The translations under genes and the position numbers were made by a program. The notes below the pieces were generated by a model, which searched no databases, had not been told where the DNA came from, and worked only from the letters and a program-made list of their open reading frames with translations. A stretch of DNA of 58,883 nucleotides from Patescibacteria group bacterium UBA1388 (GTDB lineage: Bacteria > Patescibacteriota > Microgenomatia > UBA1400 > PJMF01), in assembly GCA_002305355.1 (NCBI GenBank), contig DBQS01000036.1, forward strand, positions 81,612 through 140,494, written 5' to 3'. Below, piece by piece: positions 497-44,666 of the stretch. Every line of letters begins with the position of its first letter. The stretch's first letter is position 1.

Positions 497-1762
497 ATGA
501 AGATGCTCAAGTTTTTTTTCAATCTCCTTACTGTTGTATTATTAATTATTGTAGGCGGGATGGCACAGTATAGGTACAACATTGTGCAATACTTGCCATT
601 TGATGTTCCTAGTAGAGTGGTTAAGTCAGATCTTTCTCCCCAACAGTTATCTAAGCTTATGAATACCGCTCAGCCGAGTGAATTTCAGGATGTTGATTTT
701 TCTGTTTTTTGGCAAGCATGGCAACTTTTAGAAGATAACTATTTAGATCATGAAAAAATAGATTCGGCTAAAATGGTTGATGGCGCAGTGGCAGGTATGA
801 CGGCGGCTTTAGAAGATCCTTACACTGCCTATTTACCTCGTGAAGATAAAGTGCGTACCGGCCAAGACTTGGCAGGCGCGTTTTATGGAGTGGGTATTGA
901 GCTAGGTTATGTAGATGGAGTGTTGGCGGTAGTTGCTCCACTTGATGGTACGCCAGCCAGTAGAGCCAATGTGGAAGCGGGGGACATGATTTTGAGAGTT
1001 AAGGATGAGCAGAAAGGAATTGATGAAGATAGCTCAAATTGGTCGCTTACTCATGCAGTTGATCAAATTCGAGGGCCGCGCAATTCTGAAGTGACATTAA
1101 CATTGTTTAGAAAAAACAATGGTAATGAACCATTTGAAGTAACATTAATGAGAGATGAAATAATCGTCAAATCAGTTGAGCTCAGTTTTGAGAATGTAGC
1201 AGAGAAACGAGTAGCACACATTAAATTGAGTCGGTTTGGGGAGCGAACTTTTGAAGAATGGGATGCCGCGGTGAAAGAAATTCTTGAAAATCGCACTGAT
1301 ATTGATGGTATCGTTTTAGATATGCGCAACAATCCGGGTGGTTTTTTTGATGGGGCAATCAAGGTAGCGAGCGATTTTATTCCTTCAGGAGTAGTAGTAT
1401 CCCAGAAAGGTCGTTTTAGCGAACAAAGTTACCCTGTGGAAGGTCGGGCAAGATTGACAAACATGCCATTGGTAGTCTTGGTCAATGGCGGGAGCGCTTC
1501 TGCTTCAGAAATTGTTGCGGGTGCTCTAAGAGATCAATTAAAGACACCTCTTGTGGGACAAAAAACTTTTGGTAAAGGCACGGTCCAAGATAGACGCGAC
1601 CTCGCCAATGGCGGAGCAGTCCATGTGACTATTGCTCGTTGGATTTTACCAAGTGGAGAATGGATTCATAACGAAGGCATTGCAGTAGATGTGGAAGTAA
1701 AAGACGATCCAGAAACTGATGAGGATGAAATGCTCCTGAAAGCTGTTGAGTCTCTTTCCTAA
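497..1762 (+). CDS. S41 family C-terminal processing (tail-specific) peptidase with N-terminal membrane anchor and PDZ domain
   Basis: There is an N-terminal hydrophobic segment and a PDZ-like stretch GVGIELGY..GTPASRANVEAGDMILRV. The S41 catalytic region VVLVNGGSASASEIVAGALRD...GQKTFGKGTVQ is present. Confidence 0.85.
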   Translation: MKMLKFFFNLLTVVLLIIVGGMAQYRYNIVQYLPFDVPSRVVKSDLSPQQLSKLMNTAQPSEFQDVDFSVFWQAWQLLEDNYLDHEKIDSAKMVDGAVAGMTAALEDPYTAYLPREDKVRTGQDLAGAFYGVGIELGYVDGVLAVVAPLDGTPASRANVEAGDMILRVKDEQKGIDEDSSNWSLTHAVDQIRGPRNSEVTLTLFRKNNGNEPFEVTLMRDEIIVKSVELSFENVAEKRVAHIKLSRFGERTFEEWDAAVKEILENRTDIDGIVLDMRNNPGGFFDGAIKVASDFIPSGVVVSQKGRFSEQSYPVEGRARLTNMPLVVLVNGGSASASEIVAGALRDQLKTPLVGQKTFGKGTVQDRRDLANGGAVHVTIARWILPSGEWIHNEGIAVDVEVKDDPETDEDEMLLKAVESLS

Positions 1763-1904
1763 TTCTTTAATCAGATTGTTTTTTTAAACACTCAGACACA
1801 TATTTTTCAATCTTTTCTCAATTTTTTTTTGATATGTTTTTGATGTATCTCAGCAATTTATGAAAGTCAATTTGAAAGAGTGAAGTTTGATATAGATCGT
1901 CCGC

Positions 1905-3146
1905 TTGTTTGATCTATTTAGACACGTTAAAATTGCCCACCGTATGAATAAGTCTGAGGAAATTCACACAAATTCAAGTTTAAAGCCGTTTCTGTTAGGA
2001 CTCTCAATATCCTTGTTGGTGATTATTTCTTTTCTGTTTGGTGCGATGGCTGATCGAGTGTTTGTGATCAAGCCACTGGATTATTTATTGAAAAGGACAT
2101 CACAAGCAACATCAGATTTTCAACCCAGTGAGAAGAATAATTCTTTATTAGGTGAGTTCATCAACTCTGGAGAGTCATTGTCTGTAGCAGACGTTGCAGA
2201 AGTCGCTTCAGAATCAGTGGTAACGGTGTCAATCAAGACGCAACAACGCATTATTGATCCTTTTAGTTCTTTCGGACCATTCGGTTTTAATTTTGGTCAA
2301 GAATCAATTCAAGAAATTGAAAGAGATATTGGGTCTGGTTTTGTAGTTGATGAAGAGGGATTGGTGGTGACTAACCGGCATGTGGTATCTGATGCATCCG
2401 CAACATATAAGGTCATTGATAAAAACGACCAAGAATATGAAGTAGTCGATATTTATCGTGATCCTCTAAATGATTTGGCAATCTTGAAAATTGAAAACGC
2501 TAATTTACCTTCATTAGCTTTAGGTGACTCAGATTCACTTAGGGTGGGAGAGGGTGTAATTGCAATTGGCACTGCGTTGGGTGAGTTTCGTCACACCGTC
2601 ACGACGGGTGTAATTTCAGGTCTTGGTCGAGGAATTACAGCTGGTAATGGTTTTTCTGAGTTTGAGTCTTTGGAAAATGTGATTCAAACTGACGCCGCTA
2701 TTAACCCAGGAAATTCTGGTGGCCCGCTTATCAATATGAGTGGGGAAGTAATTGGAGTAAATGTGGCGGTGTCGGCTGCAGCGGAGAATGTTGGATTTGC
2801 TTTACCGATAAATGTTGTGAAAGCATCAATCGAAAACTTCAACAATACTGGTCAGTTTGACAGACCATTTTTAGGTGTAAGTTACATGATGATTAGTAAA
2901 GAGGCGGCAATGTTTAATGAGGTGCCTCAAGGTGGTTATATTCAAACAGTGGTGGAAGGGTCTGCTGCTGATGAGGCTGGTTTAAAACCAGGGGATATTA
3001 TCGTGGATGTTGACGGTAAATCGCTCAAGGATGAATCACTAGCGAGTATTATTAATTCTAAGCAGATTGGCGATCGTGTCAAAATTACTTTTTGGCGCGA
3101 GGATGAAAAGCGAGAAGTGACTGTAGTATTAAAGAGTGCACAATAA
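1905..3146 (+). CDS. HtrA/DegP-type trypsin-like serine protease with C-terminal PDZ domain
   Basis: Membrane anchor is present. Catalytic His context VVTNRHVV, DLAILKI and Ser motif TDAAINPGNSGGPL are visible. PDZ stretch is GSAADEAGLKPGDIIVDVDGK. The true start may be the ATG at 1944 (MNKSEE). Confidence 0.85.
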   Translation: MFDLFRHVKIAHRMNKSEEIHTNSSLKPFLLGLSISLLVIISFLFGAMADRVFVIKPLDYLLKRTSQATSDFQPSEKNNSLLGEFINSGESLSVADVAEVASESVVTVSIKTQQRIIDPFSSFGPFGFNFGQESIQEIERDIGSGFVVDEEGLVVTNRHVVSDASATYKVIDKNDQEYEVVDIYRDPLNDLAILKIENANLPSLALGDSDSLRVGEGVIAIGTALGEFRHTVTTGVISGLGRGITAGNGFSEFESLENVIQTDAAINPGNSGGPLINMSGEVIGVNVAVSAAAENVGFALPINVVKASIENFNNTGQFDRPFLGVSYMMISKEAAMFNEVPQGGYIQTVVEGSAADEAGLKPGDIIVDVDGKSLKDESLASIINSKQIGDRVKITFWREDEKREVTVVLKSAQ

Positions 3147-3276
3147 AGGAGTACTCATCAACATATGTGGCGCATTGGTCTCAGATTTATTATATAAGAG
3201 AATTTAGAAATCATCTCACTATTTTTACTCAATTTTTGTTTTGCTGACTTTTGTATACCGGTTCTGATCAAGATGT

Positions 3277-4266
3277 TTAATCTTTGGGATTTGATTGCGG
3301 AGAAGATTGATCAGTGGAAACTTTTTCAAAAGTTGCTTTAATTTCAGTAATCATGGTTTCTAAATTGCCTTCCAGTATTTCTGGCAGATTGTGCCAAGAC
3401 TGTTTGGTACGATGATCAGTGACTCTATTTTGAGGATAATTATAGGTTCTAATTTTCTCCGCGCGGCGATTGCGACCAATTACACTTCTCGCAGCGCCGA
3501 TTTCCTGTTGTCGTTTTTCTTCTTCAATTTCCCAGAGTTGAGCACGGAGTAAATCGAGGGCAATCTTGCGATTTTGTTCTTGTTTTTTTTCTTGGCGGGC
3601 GGTGACAACAATCCCACTGGGATGATGAGTTAGTCGAACGGCGCTGCTGGTTTTGTTGACCGACTGACCGCCCGCCCCGCTCGATCTCATAAACTGCCAT
3701 TCTAGATCTTCGTCGCGGATTTCCACCGCACCTGCAGGAATTTCAGGCAAAACTGCCACTGAAGCGGTTGAAGTATGAATTCTACCTTGCGCTTCTGTTT
3801 CGGGGACACGCTGTACGCGGTGGACGCCAGATTCGTAACAAAAAATTTCAAAAGGGGTAAGAGGTGAGGCGCTATCAGTCTCGAAAAAAGTTTTTCCGGA
3901 AATTTTAATAATCAAGTCATCAATGAATTCAATGCGTAACTTTTTCATTTCGGCGAAACGCACATACATTCGCAACAGATCATTTGCCCAAATCTTGGCT
4001 TCATTGCCACCGGCACCTCCCCGAATTTCAATCGTACAAGCACCTCTTTTTCCAGTTTGATTATCGTCGTGTTCGCGATTTGCTGCAGGCTGCATTTGTG
4101 CCGCTGCTTTTTCAAGCATTTGTTTTTGAGCAGACAACTGAGCTAGTTCAGCCTGAGCAAGCTCGGCAAAATCAGGATCTATTTCTAGTCTTTTTGCTTC
4201 ATCAATTTTAGCTTGTAATTCCGCCAGTTGGTCTAAGAAGGGATTGGTCATAATGTTTTTGCACAT
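3277..4266 (-). CDS. prfA: peptide chain release factor 1
   Basis: GGQ motif (SSGAGGQSVNKTSSAVRLTH) is present. The RF1-type P-x-T tripeptide context is RVPETEAQGRIHTS, not the SPF of RF2. The start may be the ATG at 4251 (MTNPFLDQL). Confidence 0.9.
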   Translation of the reverse strand: MCKNIMTNPFLDQLAELQAKIDEAKRLEIDPDFAELAQAELAQLSAQKQMLEKAAAQMQPAANREHDDNQTGKRGACTIEIRGGAGGNEAKIWANDLLRMYVRFAEMKKLRIEFIDDLIIKISGKTFFETDSASPLTPFEIFCYESGVHRVQRVPETEAQGRIHTSTASVAVLPEIPAGAVEIRDEDLEWQFMRSSGAGGQSVNKTSSAVRLTHHPSGIVVTARQEKKQEQNRKIALDLLRAQLWEIEEEKRQQEIGAARSVIGRNRRAEKIRTYNYPQNRVTDHRTKQSWHNLPEILEGNLETMITEIKATFEKVSTDQSSPQSNPKD

Positions 4267-4393
4267 AAGCTAATAGACAATATTGACATAAAAACTTATT
4301 TTGCCGTTCTTTTGCCTATTATAAATCTTTCAGATGAGAAATGTACCTCATTTGGAATATGCTGTAGAAAGGTTATGAAATATCAAGAGTTGA

Positions 4394-4825
4394 TTACTCT
4401 TTTGCTTGATCAGCAGTGGTTTTGATTGAAGCAGGGGTGCTTTTTTTATCAGCACTATTTTGAGCACTATTTTGAGCCGAGGAAGTTTGACTCTTATCTG
4501 TTTGGCCAGCTTTTTTAGCTTTTTTGAGAGCGGTTTGTCTTTCCAGTAACAATTCACGATAAGATTTTGTTTCTTTTGATTGCAGGTCAATGACTTTGGG
4601 CTTTTTTTTGGTTGGTTTGTTTTCTGCTTGTTTGACTTTTGCCATAAAGCGCTCAACGCGCCCTTGTCGATCCACAAATTTTAATTCTCCGGTAAAGAAG
4701 GGGTGACACTTGTCGCAAATATCCAGCTCAATTGTGGGCTCCACGGAACCAGTTACGAAAGAATTCCCACAGCTACAAGTAACTTTGGTATCGGTGTGCC
4801 AATTAGGATGAATGCCAGATTTCAT
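4394..4825 (-). CDS. rpmE: 50S ribosomal protein L31 with about 70-aa Lys-rich C-terminal extension
   Basis: [10 protein letters not shown]...CSCGN...[10 protein letters not shown]...[10 protein letters not shown] is the canonical Zn-ribbon L31. The frame stays open for about 70 more K/A/S/Q-rich codons. Confidence 0.9.
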
Positions 4826-4892
4826 ATTTTCCTTTTTATCGAGAAGAGAGCATTATATCACGAAAATTAAACAAGTTAAGTTGAGGATGTGA

Positions 4893-5939
4893 TCATTTCG
4901 CCCTACGATGTGGCGTGTGGTCAATCCTTTTTTCAGCCACCATCACCCCGATGAAAATCACAATTAGAGCCAGGATTTGTACAGCATATACCTTTTCTCC
5001 CAGCATGAAAAATCCCAGTGGAAGGTAAATAAGTGGTTGTAAATAGGTAAAAAGGGCAGCTTCTGAAGCTTCAATTTCGTTTTGGCCCTTAATATAAGCT
5101 GTTAAGCCAATCACGGAGCCAAAGGTAGCCATATAAAGTGCCGCGATTAACACACTTGGTTGCTTCAAATCATTCCAAATAGTCAACATCAGCGAAACCA
5201 GCGAATTTTCAGCTGACCAGGTTTCCCATAACACTAATGGGATGATAGTTATCATCCCGATAATGAAACTCACACTGGTGACAAACATTTTTGGCATATT
5301 TTGATAATATTTTTTTGCTAAAACATAATAAATAGCGACAGTGAGCACACTCAGCAGTACTAGTACGTTACCAGTGATAGAGAGCTCGCCAGACAGAGTA
5401 TAGCCATTAAAAATGGGAAAAAGTGTCAACAACAGTGTACCGATCACTGCCAAAATTAAACCCAAAATTTCATTAATTTCTTCCTTTTCTTTAAGAAGCA
5501 ACACCCCTCCAATGACAATCCAAATTGGGGTAGTGGTAGAGATCAGGCTTGCCTCAATAGCGCCAGTTGCTGCTAAACCAGCGTATAAAAGTGATAACGA
5601 TAAAGTAGTGCCAAGAATTTCCAAGGGGGCGATGCGCATCAGTTTTGACTTGAGTTGAGGAATTTGGTGACAGTATTTCCAGATTAGAGGGAGCACGAGT
5701 ATGCTAGCAAACAAAAATCTATAAAAAAGGAAGCGAAAAGGTGTAGTGACGTCAAATGCTGGTTTGACGATAATTAAAGCCGCTCCCCAAGAAAGAGTGT
5801 TGATCATCATGTAACCGTAAGATTTCCAACGCTTGACTTTGGTGAGAGAAGCAGATGAATTTTTTGACCGATATTTTTTTTGATGAGTTTTCCTTAATCC
5901 CATGAAACTAGCATAACTTATTTTTTGATGAGTGACCAT
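4893..5939 (-). CDS. EamA/DMT-superfamily transporter
   Basis: About 10 hydrophobic helices in two repeated halves, typical of EamA-domain permeases. There is a basic N-terminal extension. Confidence 0.65.
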   Translation of the reverse strand: MVTHQKISYASFMGLRKTHQKKYRSKNSSASLTKVKRWKSYGYMMINTLSWGAALIIVKPAFDVTTPFRFLFYRFLFASILVLPLIWKYCHQIPQLKSKLMRIAPLEILGTTLSLSLLYAGLAATGAIEASLISTTTPIWIVIGGVLLLKEKEEINEILGLILAVIGTLLLTLFPIFNGYTLSGELSITGNVLVLLSVLTVAIYYVLAKKYYQNMPKMFVTSVSFIIGMITIIPLVLWETWSAENSLVSLMLTIWNDLKQPSVLIAALYMATFGSVIGLTAYIKGQNEIEASEAALFTYLQPLIYLPLGFFMLGEKVYAVQILALIVIFIGVMVAEKRIDHTPHRRAK

Positions 5940-29282: not shown

Positions 29283-30359
29283 ATGCCAGATCAATCTAAA
29301 TCTGATTCCAATAAGAAAGTAGCCAAGGGTTCTGCAGAGAAAACCGGCAAAGCTAAGCCTGCAGCAGCGAAGAAGATTACCAAATCAACTCCAGCCAAGA
29401 CAGAGACTGCAGCTGCTCAGAAAGCTGCTCAGCCGGCAATCAGTAAGCAAACAGCAGCCAAGCAAACAGCCGCCAAGAAGACAGCTGATTCCTCAAAGGC
29501 AACAGCACCTGCAACCAAGAAATCTGCAACTGTCAAACAAAATTCTGCTTCAAAGACTAGTGAGATAAAAAAGCCAATATCAGAAAAAGTAACTCAACCC
29601 ATTCACACAAGTGCTCAAGTTAGAAAGCCGGTTACAAACGACGCGGAACCAGCCGCTTTCCAAGTTCCTGATTTTGACCTCAAAGAAATGTTAGAAATTG
29701 GGGCGCATTTTGGGCATCAGCAATCCAAGTGGGATCCTCGCATGGCACCTTTTATCTATATGGAAAAAGATGGTGTACACATTTTTGATTTAGTGAAAAC
29801 TGCTGCGCAACTCCAAAAAGCATATGCAAAAGCTTATCAACTGGGTCACGCGGGCAAAGTTTTAGTAGTAGTTGGTACCAAACGCCAAGCAAAAGATGTG
29901 GTAGAAAAAGTAGCCCAGGAGACTGGCGCGATGTATATTTCTTCTCGTTGGTTAGGAGGTTTTTTAACTAACTGGTCGCAAGTTCAAAAGTCACTCCAAA
30001 GAATGATCAAAATTGAACAAGGCTTGGCAAATGGAGAATTCGATAATTATACTAAGTATGAACGAGTTCAATTGGAAAAAGAACTCAGTCGTTTGGAAAG
30101 GTTCTTCGCAGGAGTTAAGGATTTGCAAGGTAGACCAGATGCTTTGTTTGTGATTGACATTAAGAAAGAGGATATTCCGGTGAAAGAAGCGAAAAGCATG
30201 GGTGTATTCACGATTGGGTTGGTTGATAGTAATGCCAATCCAGAAGATGTAGATATTGTGATTCCCGCTAATGATGATGGCAGAAAAAGTATTGAATATT
30301 TTGTTAACGCTGTGCTCAGTGGATATGCAGCTGGCAAAGCGGACCGGGGTAAGAAGTAA
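29283..30359 (+). CDS. rpsB: 30S ribosomal protein S2 with about 130-aa Lys/Ala/Thr-rich N-terminal extension
   Basis: The conserved S2 core starts at MLEIGAHFGHQQSKWDPRMAPFIY. The upstream 130 codons are open and contain repeats such as QTAAKQTAAKKTA. Confidence 0.9.
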   Translation: MPDQSKSDSNKKVAKGSAEKTGKAKPAAAKKITKSTPAKTETAAAQKAAQPAISKQTAAKQTAAKKTADSSKATAPATKKSATVKQNSASKTSEIKKPISEKVTQPIHTSAQVRKPVTNDAEPAAFQVPDFDLKEMLEIGAHFGHQQSKWDPRMAPFIYMEKDGVHIFDLVKTAAQLQKAYAKAYQLGHAGKVLVVVGTKRQAKDVVEKVAQETGAMYISSRWLGGFLTNWSQVQKSLQRMIKIEQGLANGEFDNYTKYERVQLEKELSRLERFFAGVKDLQGRPDALFVIDIKKEDIPVKEAKSMGVFTIGLVDSNANPEDVDIVIPANDDGRKSIEYFVNAVLSGYAAGKADRGKK

Positions 30360-30400: not shown

Positions 30401-30865
30401 ATGTCATACACTTCGAAAGATATTAAAAAATTGCGTGAGCAAACGGGCGCAGGAGTCATGGATTGTAAAAAAGCACTGGAAGAAGCCAAAGGCGATATGA
30501 AACAAGCCGCCAAGCTGGTAAAACAGCGTGGCATGGCTCGGGCAGAGCAAAAATCAGACAGAGAAACAAGAGAAGGCTATATCGCTTCTTATGTGCATGC
30601 AACTGGCAAGGTTGCGGCAATGGTGGAGTTGTTATGTGAGACGGATTTTGTAGCGAGAAATGATGAGTTTAGAGTTTTGGCTTATGATTTAGCGATGCAG
30701 GTTGCTTCCATGAATCCCAAAGATGTGATTGAGTTATTACAACAGGAATACATCAAAGACTCCGGAATGACAATTGAAGAATTAGTCAAACAATTAAGCG
30801 GTAAGATTGGTGAAAAACTCGCTGTGAATCGAATTGTGAGGTTTGAGGTGGGCGATAAGGCTTGA
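30401..30865 (+). CDS. tsf: elongation factor Ts (short form)
   Basis: UBA-like N-terminus IKKLREQTGAGVMDCKKALEEAKGDM. It directly follows rpsB. At 154 aa it is short. Confidence 0.85.
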   Translation: MSYTSKDIKKLREQTGAGVMDCKKALEEAKGDMKQAAKLVKQRGMARAEQKSDRETREGYIASYVHATGKVAAMVELLCETDFVARNDEFRVLAYDLAMQVASMNPKDVIELLQQEYIKDSGMTIEELVKQLSGKIGEKLAVNRIVRFEVGDKA

Positions 30866-35470: not shown

Positions 35471-35774
35471 ATCAATGATATATCCAGTAAACGTGTGATT
35501 AATTTCAAAAATCATGTGTTGAAAAGTAATTGTAATCAGGAGAGAAGGGGTGTTGCAAAAATATGCAAGAATAAATTGAGAGCAGGGGGGCGTAAAGATT
35601 TGGGGGGGGAAATTATGCCTGTGGTCAAGATAGTTTGTATGTAATCAAGATTACAATATTTATAAAATAAAATTGCAGTATAGAAAATTTTTGAAATGAT
35701 AAATTAATTATTAGATAAATTTGCAGAGTAGAGAGCGAAAAAATTTACAGAAACCCAGGCGGAGGAGGGGGTAT

Positions 35775-35833
35775 GATATAGTTAGATATAGTTAATAACT
35801 ATAGGACTGTGGATAACTGTGAAAACTATAGGA
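35775..35833. repeat. compound repeat module
   Basis: GATATAGTTA occurs twice in tandem (35775-35794). A 17-nt palindrome TATAGTTAATAACTATA spans 35787-35803. AACTATAGGA occurs twice (35797, 35824). ACTGTG occurs twice. Confidence 0.9.
35808..35816 (-). promoter_or_regulatory. perfect DnaA-box consensus (TTATCCACA)
   Basis: Plus strand TGTGGATAA is the reverse complement of TTATCCACA. One-mismatch copies are at 36409-36417 (TTTGGATAA) and 36674-36682 (TGTGGATAT). Function is unproven. Confidence 0.45.
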
Positions 35834-36416
35834 TTATCTAAGCTTAATATTTTTATTTAAACGATTAAACCAGACTAAATATGAGAGTATTTGCAGAGAC
35901 AAGAGCATGAAGGGAGTGATAACTAAACGGAGGGACGACTTCACAGAGAGCAATATATTCCAGATTATGCATCTGGAAGAGTGCGGGAATAAATAACCCG
36001 AAGCCAAGTTCCTGAGACTCTTACATATTTCTTGAGTGAGGTCGCGAGGAGCTGGTATGACAAGAACAGTAAGTAAGGAAGTGACAACAAATAAGTGCAA
36101 TGGGGACAAAGTTTGGCAGGAAATTAATTTTAATAACTAATTAAGAGATTACACGACTCCACTCTGTTGAATGTGTGACGCAGTGGAGCAATACATTCTA
36201 ATTTATAAAGTGTCGCACAATATTACTTTTGCGACGCAAACAAAATTATGCAGGTTGGAGTGATTAATCAATGACACCACGTGTCCCATCTTTTGGAGAT
36301 TCAGTTATCCGTATTTAGTAGTTTAAGTAATGCTTTTTATAGATTTCCCCTGCTTTTTCTCTCAAGTCGATATATTTCTCAACATACTGATTATTTTAGT
36401 TGCTAGTTTTTGGATA

Positions 36417-36440
36417 AACTTGATTTGACACCAACTTGAT
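36417..36440. repeat. AACTTGAT iteron pair, 16-bp period
   Basis: Exact 8-mers are at 36417 and 36433, with further exact copies at 37080 and 37259. The 14-mers AACTTGATTTGACA and AACTTGATGTGACA match 13/14. Confidence 0.85.
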
Positions 36441-37322
36441 TAATAATTACCAGGCAAGCACTTGAGGAAATAATAGGATCGTTTTTGGGAGCTTTTAGTT
36501 AAGTTTTAAGTGTGCAGATTGATAATTTAATGATTAGTAATCAAAAATTGGTATATTGAAGGAAATATTGATACATCAATTAATACATGAATTAAATGGA
36601 TGATGAATTGGTAGTTTAAAAAATAAAAAGCCGATTTTGGAGTGTTTGAGAAGCTTGGTTCCCAGGTTGGAAATGTGGATATATCAATCCAGACTGAATT
36701 AGCGGTCGTTCCAAGAAGTGAGGGTTAATTAGTTGCGTAGACTGTTGCTTGCAACGAGTCTGGATGTGACTACTTGTTTTTCCGAAAAGTATCATGTCTA
36801 AATTGCCGTGCTAGGAAGTATGGAGTGATGTTCATGGTTGCTGGTGCTTGCGCAAGTTGTATTGGTATTTAGTGATGCTGGTTGAAGATCTGGATCGATT
36901 GGGATGTGTAATTTCTTCTGGATGCCTGGAATCAATCGAGATAACTAGAATTAGCCGGACAACTAGATTTAGATGAGACAAGTTACATGTTACTCGAAGA
37001 TTGTGTATGATCAGTGACTGCAAGATCGATGACCGCCTCGATAGGAAGCTAGACTTTAGAAGCTCGACTAGAGATCGACAACTTGATGTGACAGCGGATT
37101 ATGATCGTGAGCGGATTGAGTGAATTAAGTGGATCACGATTGCCTGTGAATGATAATGGGCGGCAAATTTATTACAACCGGCATGTCGTCTGACAACTTA
37201 ATATACTATGTCAAATCTATACAAATTATATCAAAATAATAAAATTAATAACAAAAATAACTTGATATGTCCAGATTATAAATCAACAAGCAAAATTAGC
37301 ACTCCCCTCTCCCCTCTGCCAA

Positions 37323-37351
37323 TTGACCAATTTCCCGAAGCTGGCTATACT
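37323..37351 (+). promoter_or_regulatory. sigma70-type promoter for the xer gene
   Basis: TTGACC, a 17-nt spacer, then TATACT. It ends 19 nt before the ATG at 37371. Confidence 0.55.
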
Positions 37352-37370
37352 CAGTTAATTATCAGCTTCT

Positions 37371-39025: not shown

Positions 39026-40249
39026 TTATTCTTGAGTTTTTAGTGGCGCAAAGGTGAAGAATAAACCTGAACCGCCTAAAATAAAGATTACACCAAGGAT
39101 AGTCATCAGCATTGTTTGATCAAAGCCGGTTTCGGGCAACTCAGTATCTCCAGTACCTGTTGTTGGGTCAGTACTGGCGCACTGGCAAGTTTGATCATTG
39201 GGACAACGCTCGTCACGGCATACTCCGTTGATACAAGTCAATGTTCCCGCACAATCACGGCTGACTACGCACGAAGCATTGCAAATCGCGCCAGTAGTGT
39301 CGTTGGTGCCACCCGCGGTAGGAGAAGCAGTGGGTGTAGGCGTGGGAGTTGTGTTACCAGTGGGGCAATTGGTGGGTAAGATCACGGTCACGCTTTTTGA
39401 AGGATAACCACCCTCTGGAATAGCTTCGAGCTTGAGGTCTTCTCCGGCTTTGGGTAAGTTGGCAGTGGCTACGCCGTCCTCATCTGTGATGTCCTCTTTA
39501 GTGACATTGTTGTAGGTGAACTTGACTTTGACATCACCTTTTTCGTTTCCACCTTCTTTCAAAATTGCCTCAGCAGTAACCTGATCGCTCTCGCACGATA
39601 CATCATAATCAAGCTCGGTAGTTTTAGTCATGTCTGGCGGTTCTTCCACAGATACTCTGAGCGAACCGGTGGGGATGGCAGCGATATCGGGTGCAGTTCT
39701 TTCTTCTTCAGTAATCGCGGCGGTAACAACTGTTTTTTGAGCATCAAAAGCAATTGTCACAGGGCTTTTAGTGGCTTCTTCACCTGCAATAACATCAAAA
39801 GTAAATAAATCGATGAAAGAGGTGGCGGTATAGTGATTAGTGCCCGATGTTGAACATGATACATCAATAAACGTTTCATCATTAACTGTCGTAATAGACT
39901 GAGGATTACATCGAAAGTGTGCAGCTGCTTGAGTAGTGATAACAAGATTATCTGCCTCAATGGCGGGATTATCGCTATCAACTGGAAATTTTAATCGCAC
40001 ACTTACCGCCGCAATAGTTGCTCCCTCAGGAGAAAAAGCCACGGTGGCGGTTTTCTTTTCTTCGGGGTCTAAGTCCATTTGAGAAGGTGAAATGCTGAAT
40101 TTGGCAGTTCCTCCTTGTACAGCTGCTTGTCTTCTGGTGTCTTGCGGCTCAGGCATCAATAGAACTACAATCACGATCCCAACAATCAAAATTACTACGC
40201 CCAACATGCTGAGTAACAACGATTTTGATTTTAAGCTAGACAGAGCCAT
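39026..40249 (-). CDS. LPXTG sortase-anchored surface protein (beta-module, Cna-B-like module, PT linker, Cys-rich knot)
   Basis: N-terminal signal/anchor is present. The C-terminal LPETG (39125-39139) is followed by a hydrophobic helix and a short tail ending in a single Lys. There are 8 Cys in about 35 residues (CNASCVVSRDCAGTLTCINGVCRDERCPNDQTCQC). The linker is TPTPTPTASPT. Confidence 0.8.
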   Translation of the reverse strand: MALSSLKSKSLLLSMLGVVILIVGIVIVVLLMPEPQDTRRQAAVQGGTAKFSISPSQMDLDPEEKKTATVAFSPEGATIAAVSVRLKFPVDSDNPAIEADNLVITTQAAAHFRCNPQSITTVNDETFIDVSCSTSGTNHYTATSFIDLFTFDVIAGEEATKSPVTIAFDAQKTVVTAAITEEERTAPDIAAIPTGSLRVSVEEPPDMTKTTELDYDVSCESDQVTAEAILKEGGNEKGDVKVKFTYNNVTKEDITDEDGVATANLPKAGEDLKLEAIPEGGYPSKSVTVILPTNCPTGNTTPTPTPTASPTAGGTNDTTGAICNASCVVSRDCAGTLTCINGVCRDERCPNDQTCQCASTDPTTGTGDTELPETGFDQTMLMTILGVIFILGGSGLFFTFAPLKTQE

Positions 40250-40272
40250 ATTGGTTTTCTAGTCACTTACTT

Positions 40273-40905
40273 TTAGTTTGTGACACCCGTTGATTCTAGG
40301 ACGATCTCATAAGGTTCGCCATTGACTACCACCAGACTATCTTCAGCAACAATTATATCCTCTGTCCCATCAATTCCGGTAACAGTTATTATTCCCAAAT
40401 CGATGGCGGGATCAATTGTACTGTTTTTCAAATCAGTTGAACTGAGAGCAAATTCTAGGGAAGGCACATTTAGATTTGAATCTAATATAGATTTATTAAT
40501 TAAGACTTGCCACGGACCATTTTTGACAGCTTCACTAATTTGGACTGAAGAAAAACTAATGTTTTGATTATGATCGGTTGGCAGAAGTTTTAGGGAAATT
40601 CCGGTCACGGTGCTCCCTACCCCATCAATTAAAATCCGGTATTGGATTTGATCGGCGACTGAAGTATCAAGTGGTACCAAGCTTAGATTGACTTGAGGTC
40701 TGACTGGTTGAAGATCACTAGTGATTTCATGGTAAATATCAGCCGAATCTTGACCATCACTGGGTTGAAAATCCTGCTGATTAGCATTATTTGGATTGAT
40801 GTATGAATACTTATAATAAATAGATCCAACTAGCACAAAAAGCATCACACTGATAAAAATTGCTATTAATAAGCGTTGTTTTTTTAGGGCAGGGCCAATG
40901 TTCAT
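40273..40905 (-). CDS. membrane-anchored protein with single cohesin-like beta-sandwich module
   Basis: A TM helix is followed by about 150 aa of beta-rich sequence. Its ATG overlaps the stop of the upstream gene (ATGA at 40902-40905). Confidence 0.55.
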   Translation of the reverse strand: MNIGPALKKQRLLIAIFISVMLFVLVGSIYYKYSYINPNNANQQDFQPSDGQDSADIYHEITSDLQPVRPQVNLSLVPLDTSVADQIQYRILIDGVGSTVTGISLKLLPTDHNQNISFSSVQISEAVKNGPWQVLINKSILDSNLNVPSLEFALSSTDLKNSTIDPAIDLGIITVTGIDGTEDIIVAEDSLVVVNGEPYEIVLESTGVTN

Positions 40906-42212
40906 AAGGTATCTCCCCAAACGACAGTATTGGTGTAGTTGCTGATGACGATACTAATATCAAAGATATCAATCACATCATTGAAATCTAGATCATACTC
41001 ACGATTATCATCAGTCACAGGTGTATCCAATTGAGTATAGTGATCTAAAATTTGACTAACATCTAAAATAGTGATTTTATTTGATTCATTTTTTCCACTC
41101 ACTTCTCCCCTTACCAAATCACCCACTAAGAGAATCTTTTTGGAAATAAGAGTAAGCCGATTATTAGTGCTTATTATGGAAATGGCACCCAACTTTTTTC
41201 TGAGTGAAGTATCTGTTTTAACAAAAATCTCAATTTGGTCATCCTTAATTTCTCCTGGCTTGATGCCCTTAAGACTAATTGGATCAGAGGTAAAATCACC
41301 ATTCTCGTTACTGGTTAGGGTTTGTTTAATCGTTAAAGTTTGTGGGTTCAGGTTGGGGCGATCATCATTTGGGGTGTATTTAATTGAAAAGACAAAAGGT
41401 AAGGTAATTCCTTCTTTAATGACGCCCTGCATTTGGAAAGATGTGACCAACTCAAGGTCTTCACTTGGTGTCGGCGTAGGTGTCGTAGGTGTTGGCGTCG
41501 GTGTCGTAGGCGTCGGCGTCGGCGTAGGAGTCGGAGTAGGGGTGGGTGTAACATTTGGTTGATCGGCAATAGTTAGGGAGGCTCCATTTCCCTTGATTTT
41601 AGCGACATTAACTAATTCTTCTTGGGCTGTTATCATTACATCGGGATCAATTGTAATTAGAGTAGATCCGAGTTCTGTTTTTGCCTTAACCTTCATTGTC
41701 ATAACCAGCACATCTGCATCAGTAACTTCTTCTTCTAAATTAACCAAAACTGCTTTGACGGTACCTGCTGCATTGTCAATTACCGGTGATTCAACCGGAA
41801 CAGGAAACGCTCCATTTACGAATTGGGGATCAGAAATAGTGATAAAAGACTTATCAAAATGAAGGGTGAAATCCGTACCATTTAGCTTAAGACCATTGGT
41901 TTTGATTCTTAGCTCAATGGTTTTTTCTTGATTAATATTTAAGTTACTAGTCTCGGGTTCTAAGTAGATTTCTGCCTTGATATCTGCAGCTGAGGTATCT
42001 TGCAAAGTATTGGTTGAAATAAGCTGCCTGGTAGTCATCGCTCCTGCTACCAACACTAAGGCAGACAATACACCAACCACTTGTGCTACAAACGGCACTC
42101 TCAGTTTAAATGGAGGAGGAACTTTGCCAACTGATGGTTGGCTGGGACTAGATACACGATCGACAGTTGTCTTTTGGTCGGTAATTTGATGGATATCGTA
42201 ATTATAATTCAT
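40902..42212 (-). CDS. membrane-anchored adaptor: cohesin-like module, (PT)n linker, X module, C-terminal dockerin-like repeats
   Basis: TM helix at about aa 40-60. The pattern LEPETSNLNINQEKTIELRIKTNGLKLNGTDFTLHFDKSFITIS...GTVKAVLVNL...VLVMTMKVKAKTELGSTLITI resembles type I cohesins. The linker is PTPTPTPTPTPTPTTPTPTPTTPTPTPS. DLDFNDVIDIFD fits a D-x-D-x-N-x3-D-x2-D calcium loop. Confidence 0.6.
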   Translation of the reverse strand: MNYNYDIHQITDQKTTVDRVSSPSQPSVGKVPPPFKLRVPFVAQVVGVLSALVLVAGAMTTRQLISTNTLQDTSAADIKAEIYLEPETSNLNINQEKTIELRIKTNGLKLNGTDFTLHFDKSFITISDPQFVNGAFPVPVESPVIDNAAGTVKAVLVNLEEEVTDADVLVMTMKVKAKTELGSTLITIDPDVMITAQEELVNVAKIKGNGASLTIADQPNVTPTPTPTPTPTPTPTTPTPTPTTPTPTPSEDLELVTSFQMQGVIKEGITLPFVFSIKYTPNDDRPNLNPQTLTIKQTLTSNENGDFTSDPISLKGIKPGEIKDDQIEIFVKTDTSLRKKLGAISIISTNNRLTLISKKILLVGDLVRGEVSGKNESNKITILDVSQILDHYTQLDTPVTDDNREYDLDFNDVIDIFDISIVISNYTNTVVWGDTL

Positions 42213-42221
42213 AACGGCCGT

Positions 42222-44666
42222 CTATTTAGTGCATGATTTATTGTATTGTTCTTTAAATTGATTGAAATCTAACAAATCGATGTAACAATCGCTACCCAAT
42301 AAGTTTACATTACATTTAAAAGACTTATACTGAGTTTTAAATTGGTTGAAGTCAAGTAAATCGACAGTACAATTTCCATCAAAATCTCCTGGTAGTCGGT
42401 CGACTTTGACTTTGGTTACACATGCCACATCATTGCCAATATACTTGCCGTCTTTAGTTACAAAAGTGGCGTTAATTTGTAAATTTTGTGGAACTTTAGG
42501 ACCATTTGCACCTTGCTTTTCAGTCCAGCTGGTATTCATATCTGGCTTCGAGAGTTCTTCGTAGGTAAATGAATAACTACCAGTTTTGGCACTTGTAGTA
42601 TTGGGGAGTCTTTGTGCCAAAGTAACTGGTCCGGTATAATCCGACCGTTTATCAAAATCTGGTTTTCCGTTAGTAATGGGAATAGAAGATTCAAACCCCT
42701 GATTGTTGCGCCAGTAAATTTCTTTAACGATTGCAGCGTCTGAGCTATCAGTTGCGAGATATAAATCAGTGGCTTCTAAATATCCAGAACCAGGCATCAA
42801 GTCGAGTCTCCTCCCTGTGGCAGTGAAAGTCGCGGGTTGATCGGTATTATTGTAATCTGGTAATCCATCTGCTGGCTTGACGGGCAAAGTTCGAGTGAAT
42901 TCACGACCATCTTGTCGCCAAATAAATTGATAAAAATTGCCCCCATAAATAATACTGGATTGAGCAACTATCTGACCAGTTCCTGGGAAAACATCAGGTT
43001 GCTTATTAAGATCAGCTACTTCTTGCGGAGTAATACCGCTAGCATTAATGCCGGATTTATCTTGGTTGTACGGTGCAGTGAGCACATAGCCTTTACCCCC
43101 TTTCCAGTAAGAGATTTGAGCTACTTCTTTAGCGGGAATTGTATCGAGTGCATGCACTTCTCCTGTTCCGGGTAGACTAGTTGCAGGAAAAGGAACGTCC
43201 CAAGATGCCGACAAAGAAAGCTTTGTCCAACCTTGATTGCCTCGCCATAAACCATAACCTAGTTGATTGTTGGGGAGATTGTAAATACTTAATGACTGTA
43301 CAAGACCGTTTTGAGTGCCTTCTGCGGTGAGATGACCAGTCCCATCAGGACAACCATCAGCTTTAGTAGTAGCTCCTGTCACACAATACGGCTGAGGTAT
43401 GCCATCTTTTAAATTGTCTAAGTTGTAAACCTTATAAATAAATTTTCCAATATTGGTGTTTGCGGTGGAGGTGACAATCACTGTTTGGTTAGCTCTGAGC
43501 GGTAAATTGTATATGTTTTGAGTGGCGGTGACGCACGATGGCGCTGGCGGAGGTGGAGGAGGTGCTGCTCCCAATGGACATGTAGCGGTAGCGATTTCTT
43601 TAAACTTCTGGCCGTGGACACGGAGACCTTCAACGCCGTCTTTATTTTGTCGTAGACCATACTCACCACCTCCAGTATCTCTAATTGCCAGGTACATTGC
43701 GCCCGCTATATATGAATATTGATCACTTTTCATTTTGTTTAGTGCATTTTCAACTAACGACGCAGCCATAGTTTGACGGACAGTGCTACTATTATTTTCT
43801 TTATCAAATCCTGGCCATTTCAAATCCCAGCCCCACTCTGTGATCCAAATAGGTTTTTTATTTGATTGAGCATTGTAAGCTGCTTCAATTTTGGAAAAAT
43901 TAAGATCATTTGCTGTTTCCTTTTCATAAGGGTGGATGGCTAAGCCATCATATTTAGCGCCATATTGATCCATCCAGCGAATGAATTGAGTTTGGTCTTT
44001 ATGCCATTCGAGCTGACCGCCAATAAAAATCGCGTTTGGATCTTCTTTTTTCACTTCCTCGAAAGCAATATTCATCCAGTAAGTGTAATCTTTAGCACCA
44101 CCTTCACTTGAATCACATCCTTCGCGATTGTTAGATCCACAACCATTGGGTTCGTTACCATAGGTCCAGTACTTAATACTACCCTTATATCTGTTGACTG
44201 TAGTTCTCACAAAGCTGCGAAACGCTGCTTCCGATTGGTCTTTCTTAGGTAAAGATTTACCAGCTGCCCAACCAGTATAAGGTTCATTATCCCAAAATTC
44301 AGGTCTTTGAGCTGCCCATTTAGGTGTTCCAGAGAGAGATCCAATAATGACCAATTTTGCTGCATCATATTTTGATATAAAAGATTCTGGACCCGAATAA
44401 TCCATCTGAGCTTGCGCAGGCTCAATGCGATCCCAAGCAAACGTGACACTAGTCATTGTGCCACCTGTATCAGGGATGGTTTGGTCTGCGTCATCTCTAT
44501 CTGCTGGATTGATTCCAAACAATAATGGTCTGCTAAATCCGTTTGTACATTGCGCATCTCTAACAGCATTGACTGGATTTGCCAATAACAAATAAAAAGT
44601 AACGGATGTACTTAAGCCGACGAACAATACAAACAAAAAATAACCAATCAAGCGCAGTTGTCTCAT
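42222..44666 (-). CDS. secreted clan GH-A (TIM-barrel) glycoside hydrolase with 4 internal repeats and C-terminal dockerin-like duplicated segment
   Basis: Signal/anchor is present. AWDRIEP, YWTYGNEPN (acid/base Glu) and IWITEWGW (nucleophile Glu) are visible. A poly-Pro linker follows. The C-terminus is GDFDGNCTVDLLDFNQFKTQY ... SDCYIDLLDFNQFKEQY. Confidence 0.7.
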   Translation of the reverse strand: MRQLRLIGYFLFVLFVGLSTSVTFYLLLANPVNAVRDAQCTNGFSRPLLFGINPADRDDADQTIPDTGGTMTSVTFAWDRIEPAQAQMDYSGPESFISKYDAAKLVIIGSLSGTPKWAAQRPEFWDNEPYTGWAAGKSLPKKDQSEAAFRSFVRTTVNRYKGSIKYWTYGNEPNGCGSNNREGCDSSEGGAKDYTYWMNIAFEEVKKEDPNAIFIGGQLEWHKDQTQFIRWMDQYGAKYDGLAIHPYEKETANDLNFSKIEAAYNAQSNKKPIWITEWGWDLKWPGFDKENNSSTVRQTMAASLVENALNKMKSDQYSYIAGAMYLAIRDTGGGEYGLRQNKDGVEGLRVHGQKFKEIATATCPLGAAPPPPPPAPSCVTATQNIYNLPLRANQTVIVTSTANTNIGKFIYKVYNLDNLKDGIPQPYCVTGATTKADGCPDGTGHLTAEGTQNGLVQSLSIYNLPNNQLGYGLWRGNQGWTKLSLSASWDVPFPATSLPGTGEVHALDTIPAKEVAQISYWKGGKGYVLTAPYNQDKSGINASGITPQEVADLNKQPDVFPGTGQIVAQSSIIYGGNFYQFIWRQDGREFTRTLPVKPADGLPDYNNTDQPATFTATGRRLDLMPGSGYLEATDLYLATDSSDAAIVKEIYWRNNQGFESSIPITNGKPDFDKRSDYTGPVTLAQRLPNTTSAKTGSYSFTYEELSKPDMNTSWTEKQGANGPKVPQNLQINATFVTKDGKYIGNDVACVTKVKVDRLPGDFDGNCTVDLLDFNQFKTQYKSFKCNVNLLGSDCYIDLLDFNQFKEQYNKSCTK

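Follow-up and report, generated by a model that had tools for sequence, protein, structure and literature searches.

In the 58,883-nucleotide stretch of contig DBQS01000036.1 from Patescibacteria group bacterium UBA1388 that we analyzed (hereafter, the window), positions 39026-44666 contain four tightly packed open reading frames (ORFs), all on the minus strand. We refer to these as G1 (42222-44666, 814 amino acids [aa]), a predicted secreted cargo enzyme; G2 (40902-42212, 436 aa), a predicted adaptor; G3 (40273-40905, 210 aa from its ATG, with the start extended to a TTG at 40920 in the ORF listing), a small anchored module; and G4 (39026-40249, 407 aa), a predicted wall-anchored base. There are 9 nt between G1 and G2, a 4-nt ATGA overlap between G2 and G3, and 23 nt between G3 and G4. 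An initial annotation, made from the sequence alone, had interpreted these genes as a minimal cohesin-dockerin surface assembly anchored by sortase, and the spacings and the motifs that it quoted from G1, G2, and G4 are all present at the expected places. Based on the results described below, we favor an operon-encoded assembly of this kind over the other interpretations, with appreciable reservations about the system as a whole. Module homology, architecture, and an LPXTG-type signal support it, but most of the Pfam scores are below the gathering thresholds and there is no multi-cohesin scaffoldin. A word-indexed search gave 15 relatives of G2, 5 of G4, and 10 of G1; below, individual proteins are cited by P numbers and loci by L numbers.

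The N-terminal module of G2 resembles cohesins in both sequence and predicted fold. G2 consists of an N-terminal transmembrane/signal anchor (helix at residues ~39-61), a cohesin module (41559-41978, residues 79-218), a (PT)n linker that was read from the sequence (41463-41558, residues 219-250), and an X-module (residues ~251-362) followed by a dockerin (residues ~363-430), the last two together at 40905-41462. The Pfam Cohesin profile (PF00963) matched residues 95-205 at a sub-threshold score (E 5e-4, 20.6 bits compared to a gathering threshold of 24.1). In the AlphaFold2 model of G2, the predicted local distance difference test score (pLDDT) was 62 overall, ~80 for the N-terminal module, and ~75 for the X-module, which was modeled as a beta module at residues 254-361. 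When this model was compared to the PDB with Foldseek, almost all of the top ~30 matches were cohesins (TM-score [TMt] 0.70-0.78, root-mean-square deviation [rmsd] ~3 Å). The best matches to the N-terminal module were 6kgd_A (E 1e-8, TMt 0.78, rmsd 3.0 Å) and 1g1k_A (TMt 0.78), and the cohesins of ScaB, ScaC, OlpA, OlpC, and ScaE were also found. The family of the N-terminal module aligned to proteins carrying Pfam Cohesin with an hhalign value of 96.6% (E 6e-10, 130 columns), and a combined cohesin profile had cohesins at ranks 1-5 in the PDB, with a best E of only 0.004. The cohesin-like character that had been proposed for this module is supported by the fold match and by the alignment to annotated cohesins.

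The C-terminal half of G2 is homologous to solved structures of an X-module plus dockerin (XDoc). A profile made from G2 and six relatives (A1) matched 5k39_B (3e-8), 2b59_B (XDocII of CipA; 1.2e-6), 3kcp_A (5e-6), and 5g5d_B (3e-5) in the PDB, in alignments that span the last strands of the X-module through both dockerin repeats. Pfam Dockerin_1 (PF00404) aligned over profile positions 5-53 (49 of 57) with 11.5 bits compared to a threshold of 22.9 (E 0.36). Two relatives of G2, P0005 and P0007, have uninterrupted Pfam Dockerin_1 dockerins that align column by column to the G2 C-terminus. The dockerin-like pair of the initial annotation includes the stretch DLDFNDVIDIFDISIVISNY at residues 407-426, and the second calcium loop, DLDFNDVIDIFD, has the canonical ligands D1, D3, N5, D9, and D12. 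The second module and dockerin-like pair described previously are retained, with the second module now identified as an X-module. Based on the sequence profiles and the model, G2 is very probably a cohesin plus XDoc protein.

G4 appears to begin with a second cohesin. This protein has an N-terminal transmembrane/signal segment with the sequence QDTRRQA, a cohesin-like module (39647-40111, residues ~47-201), an immunoglobulin (Ig)-like beta-sandwich (39365-39619, residues ~211-295; the candidate Cna-B-like module of the initial annotation), a PT linker, an eight-Cys module (39179-39283, residues 323-357), and a sorting signal with LPETG (39026-39139). The N-terminal module aligned to the G2 cohesin family with an hhalign value of 97.3% (E 2.5e-11, 127 columns). 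There was no Pfam cohesin match in G4 or in any of its homologues. In the AlphaFold2 model, the pLDDT was ~78 for the cohesin-like module and ~88 for the beta-sandwich that follows. The best Foldseek matches to this model were CipA CohI9-X-Doc chains (E 1e-6), and matches to single cohesins included 6kgf_C (E 3e-5, TM-score 0.67) and ScaE (2zf9; E 3.5e-4, TM-score 0.52). These matches (TMt 0.52-0.67) are weaker than those of G2, but they are still the best single-domain matches; the others were generic two-domain Ig superpositions with an rmsd of ~20 Å. The homology to the G2 cohesin and the resemblance to cohesins including ScaE are consistent with the earlier proposal of a cohesin-like base, and from sequence and model together we are fairly confident that the N-terminal module of G4 is a cohesin.

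The C-terminal part of G4 has the features expected of a stalk and a sorting signal. LPETG (39125-39139, residues 371-375) is followed by 21 hydrophobic residues (helix at 39050-39112) and a tail, APLKTQE, with one Lys. The signal scored 17 bits with Gram_pos_anchor (gathering threshold 20) and 15.5 with TIGR01167 (cut-off 15.9). G4 homologues have LPESG, LPQTG, LPQSG, LPDSG, or LPNSG, followed by a transmembrane helix and a basic tail, and the signal in G4 is the only one of the LPXTG type in the window. All eight cysteines of the eight-Cys module are invariant. This module has a weak match to Dumpy DPY and is repeated in neighboring leucine-rich repeat (LRR) proteins and in P0003 and P0004. 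The beta-sandwich is present in zero to three copies across homologues. The sorting signal, the PT linker, and the eight cysteines had all been noted initially; each is present, and the signal is conserved.

A short motif, [QST]D-x-R-[QRK]-x-A (QDTRRQA, QDIRQQA, QDLRQQA), is located three to eight residues past the N-terminal transmembrane helix in several of these proteins. In the window it is at 40124-40144 (G4 residues 36-42), and it is also present in L001, L004, L005, L006, L007, and L008. The proteins that carry it are G4-type, G2-type, LRR/Cys-module, and dockerin proteins. Every match to the regular expression, in the window and in the six loci, was at this position after the helix and only in proteins of this cluster. 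It may serve in cleavage or sorting that is specific to this lineage.

G3 has an N-terminal signal anchor (residues 12-31) that appears to be uncleaved and one beta module (residues ~70-205). No Pfam cohesin match was found in G3 or its homologues, and G3 had no Pfam match of any kind. An exhaustive phmmer search of 1.8e9 representatives yielded only two to three true relatives; another candidate, P0038, was rejected as an unrelated repetitive sequence. G3 aligned to the G4 cohesin family with an hhalign value of 78% (E 1.7e-5, 110 columns), and there were weak, reciprocal cross-matches between module hidden Markov models (HMMs). In place of such an anchor, homologues in L005, L006, and L011 have lipoboxes (LFAGC, LALAGC, and LLLTSC). 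The anchor and the single beta module that had been described are present, and the module can now be called probably cohesin-like. From these alignments, we lean toward a cohesin-like identity for the module of G3, with anchoring by membrane or lipid.

G1 contains a catalytic domain of clan GH-A of the glycoside hydrolases (GH). The protein has a signal peptide (predicted cut between VNA and V), the clan GH-A (TIM-barrel) domain (43542-44549, residues ~40-375), a proline linker (PPPPPP, residues 369-374), a split beta-domain with four repeats, and a dockerin-like tail. Pfam Glyco_hydro_cc (PF11790) matched above its threshold (E 3.6e-7, 30.5 bits compared to a cut-off of 21). The motif YGNEPN (44145-44162, residues 169-174) has the putative acid/base Glu, and IWITEWGW (43827-43850, residues 273-280) has the putative nucleophile Glu; NEP and E(W/Y)G were kept in all of the G1 homologues examined (P0027-P0033). 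Comparison to the PDB gave weak similarity to GH10 xylanases and PslG. The catalytic assignment made initially is supported by the Pfam match and the conserved Glu motifs. As judged by its sequence, G1 is a clan GH-A glycoside hydrolase. It is outside the cellulase and hemicellulase families used in a published screen (PMC11557425), and its tail is divergent and dockerin-like.

The beta-domain of G1 is interrupted by four repeats of ~60 residues each that share the motif (L/F/M)PG(T/S)G...W(R/K)xxxG. The recurring motif supports the four internal repeats proposed earlier, but the pairwise similarities are weak (z = 1.5-4.7 over shuffles). The region containing the repeats is probably glycan-binding. 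The two flanks of the beta-domain (43506-43535, CVTATQNIYN...YNLDN...; and 42396-42600, ...YEELSKPDMN...NLQINATF...) are contiguous in the N-terminus of P0005, an otherwise unrelated dockerin protein, which suggests that the repeat region was inserted into the beta-domain.

The C-terminal 57 residues of G1 (42225-42395, residues 758-814) are a duplicated, dockerin-like segment with four conserved cysteines. The first repeat, DFDGNCTVDLLDFNQFKTQY (residues 761-780), has a canonical D-x-D-x-N-x3-D-x2-D loop, and in the second, SDCYIDLLDFNQFKEQY (residues 792-808), the loop is degenerate. When a profile of the tail family was compared to the PDB, 14 of 19 matches were dockerins, with a marginal best E of 0.0024. 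The tail aligned to the dockerin repeat of G2 with an hhalign value of 76% (E 2.4e-5) over only 24 columns. There was no Pfam Dockerin_1 match in the tail; the best score among homologues of the G1 cargo type was 13.8 bits (P0029). The initial assignment of a dockerin stands in part: the tail profile matches almost exclusively dockerins, if marginally, but the tail is an unusual Cys-containing variant that Pfam does not recognize. The tail of P0029 lacks the first and last cysteines together, and a protein in L008 (described below) has none of the four, while both of its loops are closer to the canonical form. Such co-variation suggests disulfides between the first and fourth and between the second and third cysteines in the G1 tail, and implies that these predicted bonds partly replace the second calcium site. 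We think it likely, on the basis of the profile matches, that the G1 tail is a derivative of a dockerin.

The order G2-G3-G4 is conserved in loci from divergent lineages. Scans for related loci gave one locus in genome contigs and, in two metagenome scans, none and four. The order recurs in about nine independent loci (L001/L002/L003, L004, L005, L006, L008, L009, and L011) and is rearranged in L007. The significant family-profile matches and a gene order that recurs in unrelated contigs indicate that these features are beyond chance. The four-gene block in the window is chromosomal, directly downstream of gyrB-ppa-gyrA and upstream of a tRNA-Ala gene and a gene for an XerC/D-type recombinase. 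Loci of the same lineage as the window (L004, L009, L010) have a gene for a GH-plus-tail protein between gyrA and G2. In a relative that is 99% identical (L009; GCA_040767465.1, JAXGOO010000002.1, 5455-6794), G2 is broken around the PT linker and called as three short ORFs (212, 103, and 66 aa). Either this is a true pseudogene, or the break comes from a frameshift or an assembly error in the repeat.

The cargo gene is exchanged at a fixed position in one locus. In L008 (CAZYNM010000009.1), at the same site between gyrB-ppa-gyrA and xerC, a CBM96 protein replaces the GH at the position of G1. This is a secreted protein of 289 aa (4497-5366) with a match to Pfam CBM96 (E 2.4e-11) and a tail with a Cys-free dockerin-like pair, DLDNDGDVDIFDYNSLLGDFG and DIVRNGAIDIFDYNVLLGDFG, to which Pfam Dockerin_1 is blind. 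We interpret this replacement as conservation of the scaffold with exchange of the cargo.

One locus bears on which modules pair with each other. L012, which has no G3, encodes a secreted protein of 864 aa that ends in a G2-type XDoc (662-3256, minus strand) and a transmembrane-anchored protein of 368 aa (3455-4561, plus strand) in which a G4-type cohesin is fused to a G2-type XDoc. This arrangement modestly favors a predicted pairing between XDoc and G4-type cohesins. The presence of XDoc on both proteins also indicates that it is a general C-terminal tag in this group and not a feature of scaffoldins alone.

A different gene follows the trio in another set of loci. In L001 (4413-6299), L005 (5801-7699), L006 (4572-6152), and L011 (7687-9558), the trio is followed by a gene for an LRR protein of 526-632 aa that has a transmembrane helix with QDIRQQA, an LRR domain, three to four copies of the G4-type Cys module, and a transmembrane helix at the C-terminus. 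The cluster in this lineage adjoins secE-nusG-rplK-rplA.

We propose that these genes specify a compact and self-contained system for cohesin-dockerin display on the surface of a bacterium with a Gram-positive-type envelope. G4 would be exported, and a sortase encoded elsewhere would link its LPETG to the cell wall, leaving its N-terminal cohesin as the tip of a stalk that comprises the Ig-like module, the PT linker, and the eight-Cys module. G2 would be a monovalent adaptor whose XDoc plugs into the G4 cohesin, as in the pairs CipA XDocII-SdbA/OlpB and ScaB XDoc-ScaE, and whose N-terminal cohesin takes up the cargo by its dockerin-like tail. The cargo in this genome would be G1, a secreted clan GH-A hydrolase with a disulfide-stapled variant of a dockerin. 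G3 would probably provide a second docking site close to the membrane. The net effect would be that a protein that cleaves or binds polysaccharide is held at the cell surface, with a cargo that is exchangeable in evolution. The exact wiring, from G1 to G2 to G4, is close to an even call. The dependence on calcium or disulfides, the processing by sortase, the substrate, and the role of G3 are parts of the scheme that we infer.

Several observations weigh against this interpretation. Pfam Cohesin, Dockerin_1, and Gram_pos_anchor were all sub-threshold, and G1, G3, and G4 had no Pfam cohesin or dockerin match; yet sequence profiles gave significant cohesin and dockerin matches, and the folds predicted for G2 and G4 are related to those of cohesins. 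A profile of the G4 family (A2) found no cohesin in the PDB, only noise from transmembrane helices and low-complexity sequence. The first calcium loop of G2 has an 8-residue insertion relative to P0005, P0007, and CipA, the G2 model is of low confidence over the dockerin (pLDDT ~40-60), and the second calcium loop of the G1 tail is degenerate, as described above. The assignment of G3 hangs on the single hhalign result of 78%. As stated in the initial annotation, the window has no sortase gene: there was no TLxTC motif in any frame of the whole window and no match to the Pfam sortase family (PF04203) when ORFs of 150 aa or longer were scanned as far as 56.3 kb into the window. In four loci (L001, L005, L006, and L011), no cargo with a tail of the G1 type is encoded next to the trio. 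Lastly, ~38 residues precede the transmembrane helix of G2, with no obvious AxA cleavage site, so G2 may stay anchored in the membrane, which would change the geometry.

The alternative that best survives these comparisons is that the modules are true cohesins and dockerins whose partners are elsewhere in the genome, or that they function directly in adhesion to a host or partner or in glycan binding, as other cohesin or dockerin proteins outside cellulosomes do, with the operon encoding co-regulated surface proteins. The four loci that have G2-G3-G4 and no adjacent dockerin cargo fit this possibility, as do the XDoc tails on other large proteins (L012). In addition, one of the essential proteins of the epibiotic Saccharibacterium Southlakia has a dockerin domain and is discussed as targeting host glycans (PMC10633639). 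In contrast, a single compact, translationally coupled operon combines two types of dockerin with at least two of cohesin. This combination, the strict synteny across divergent lineages, and the swapping of a cargo gene at a fixed position beside the scaffold genes all argue for partners encoded together. Furthermore, when the module HMMs were compared to the ORFs of the window, the only non-self matches were to other members of the operon, and no other ORF in the window had either module, including any cohesin-like ORF beyond G2, G3, and G4. We consider this first alternative unlikely.

A second alternative keeps the same parts and changes the wiring: G2 is retained in the membrane, or G3 is the main receptor, or both, giving a tether that spans the envelope and not a distal stalk. 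For example, G1 or the XDoc of G2 might dock on membrane-anchored G3, and contact between the G2 XDoc and G4 might tether the membrane to the wall. The long N-terminal region of G2 is consistent with this arrangement, and G3 is always between G2 and G4, is anchored by a transmembrane segment or lipid, and is related to the G4 cohesin. However, in solved systems the XDoc modules to which that of G2 is homologous bind the anchoring cohesin (PMC5429695), a G4-type cohesin occurs alongside XDoc proteins in L012, where G3 is absent, and G3 is the least conserved and least cohesin-like of the modules. Together, these make the rewired arrangement distinctly improbable.

It is very unlikely that these are generic Ig-like or beta-sandwich surface proteins (sortase pilins or MSCRAMM-like) in which acidic loops only stabilize the fold and the likeness to cohesins is superficial: the sub-threshold Pfam cohesin and dockerin scores and some Foldseek matches to pilins (BcpA, EbpB) and Fabs with a generic two-domain Ig arrangement would fit, but those matches have an rmsd of ~19-23 Å and low TM-scores compared to ~3 Å and 0.7-0.78 for cohesins, and sequence profiles independently retrieve XDoc and dockerin structures. 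We rejected the pilin/MSCRAMM reading because of the poor two-domain superpositions (~20 Å) and because the window has no pilus sortase and no second LPXTG protein.

The favored reading, a surface assembly built from these four proteins, might be extended further. The operon could be an undescribed minimal cohesin-dockerin cassette with swappable cargo, belonging to an ultra-small, probably episymbiotic lineage similar to the Candidate Phyla Radiation (CPR)/Patescibacteria and used to equip the surface with proteins that cleave or bind glycans, for attachment to or feeding on a host. This joint reading would combine a sortase-anchored cohesin, a second cohesin anchored by membrane or lipid, an XDoc adaptor, a disulfide-stapled cargo dockerin that is missing one calcium site, and the motif QDxRQQA after an N-terminal transmembrane helix as a lineage-specific marker of the system. 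We offer this combination tentatively and, taken as a whole, regard it as doubtful. Our search of the literature found no description of a cohesin-dockerin-sortase operon in CPR/Patescibacteria.

Other features of the window are outside the operon. Genes for type IV pili (pilB/pilT/pilC) are at 51-56 kb, and both Lgt and LspA are encoded. No rRNA was found in the window, and a scan for promoters and terminators gave counts close to those expected from shuffled sequence. A region of ~1.9 kb (35471-37370), between an ORF for a polytopic membrane protein and the xerC-like gene, has no ORF of more than 91 aa, a GC content of 28-43%, and a strong positive GC skew. Neither an Rfam match at E≤0.1 nor any notable repeats turned up in this region, which is possibly non-coding RNA or gene remnants. 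Ribosomal protein S2 (29283-30359) has an N-terminal extension of ~135 residues ahead of the Pfam domain, and EF-Ts (30401-30865) is only 154 aa. These unusual sizes may help to place the organism.

Nearly all that is understood about cohesin-dockerin assembly comes from cellulolytic Clostridia and Ruminococci. In genome screens that use Pfam or CDD thresholds, cohesin-dockerin systems were found in very few lineages (PMC11557425). With modules as divergent as these, three of the four proteins remain 'hypothetical' under standard annotation, and an NCBIfam search gave nothing useful. The unit would follow the same logic as the known systems, with a dockerin-tagged enzyme, a cohesin plus XDoc adaptor, and a cohesin anchored by sortase. 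Should the predicted pairs bind, the known range of cohesin-dockerin systems would be wider and their minimal size smaller. Binding would also provide a compact orthogonal set of cohesin-dockerin and cohesin-XDoc pairs for protein engineering, possibly including a calcium-independent, disulfide-stabilized dockerin, and a concrete, testable approach to how hydrolases and lectin-like proteins are displayed on the surface of small uncultured bacteria. It would also bear on the unexplained essential dockerin protein reported in Saccharibacteria (PMC10633639).

We compared the operon to known cohesin-dockerin systems. The criteria of a published screen include a dockerin-fused glycoside hydrolase and a scaffoldin with at least two cohesins (PMC11557425). 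In the window, G2, G3, and G4 have one module each; with at most one cohesin per protein, the system is not strictly a cellulosome, and without a multi-cohesin scaffoldin, the term fits as an analogy only. Dockerin domains have been noted in Patescibacteria, one case being SEML1_0315 of the Saccharibacterium Southlakia epibionticum, a dockerin-annotated envelope protein that is reported as essential and suggested to target host glycans; in contrast to the operon here, the available part of the report describes no cohesin partner, operon, or sortase anchor for it (PMC10633639). In non-cellulosomal systems (the Ruminococcus bromii amylosome, mucinolysomes, and glycosidase complexes of Clostridium perfringens), the proteins that cohesin-dockerin pairs bring together on the surface act on glycans but are not cellulases, and sortase-anchored cohesin proteins are reported to occur (PMC9112005, PMC12663171, PMC12997984). 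Those systems are from Bacillota with many dockerin proteins per genome, whereas the present minimal unit has four genes, a single visible cargo, and highly divergent modules.

CipA of Clostridium (Acetivibrio) thermocellum, with its XDocII-SdbA/OlpB pairs (2B59, 3KCP, 4FL4), resembles the operon in two respects: the profile of the C-terminal half of G2 matches the CipA XDocII (E 1.2e-6 and 5e-6), and CipA CohI9-X-Doc chains are the best fold matches of the G4 model. It differs in that anchoring there is by SLH domains and here by a predicted sortase/LPXTG signal, in the 8-residue insertion in the first calcium loop of G2, and in having nine cohesins compared to one in G2.

The sca cluster of Ruminococcus flavefaciens, which ends with the gene for ScaE, resembles the operon in closing with a single-cohesin LPXTG protein. 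It also has XDoc modules (ScaB/CttA) as the likely anchor plug, a monovalent adaptor with one cohesin and one dockerin (ScaC), and dockerin-bearing enzymes as cargo (organization of sca: PMC5429695, PMC11557425). Unlike sca, the operon has no multi-cohesin scaffoldin equivalent to ScaA or ScaB, includes the extra membrane- or lipid-anchored G3, has modules below the Pfam thresholds, and carries a cargo that is not a classical cellulase and whose dockerin-like tail has four cysteines and one canonical calcium loop. In addition, the organism is not a Clostridium-class cellulolytic bacterium. Based on these comparisons, we conclude that the closer parallel to the operon is a monovalent adaptor plus anchor of the ScaC/ScaE type.

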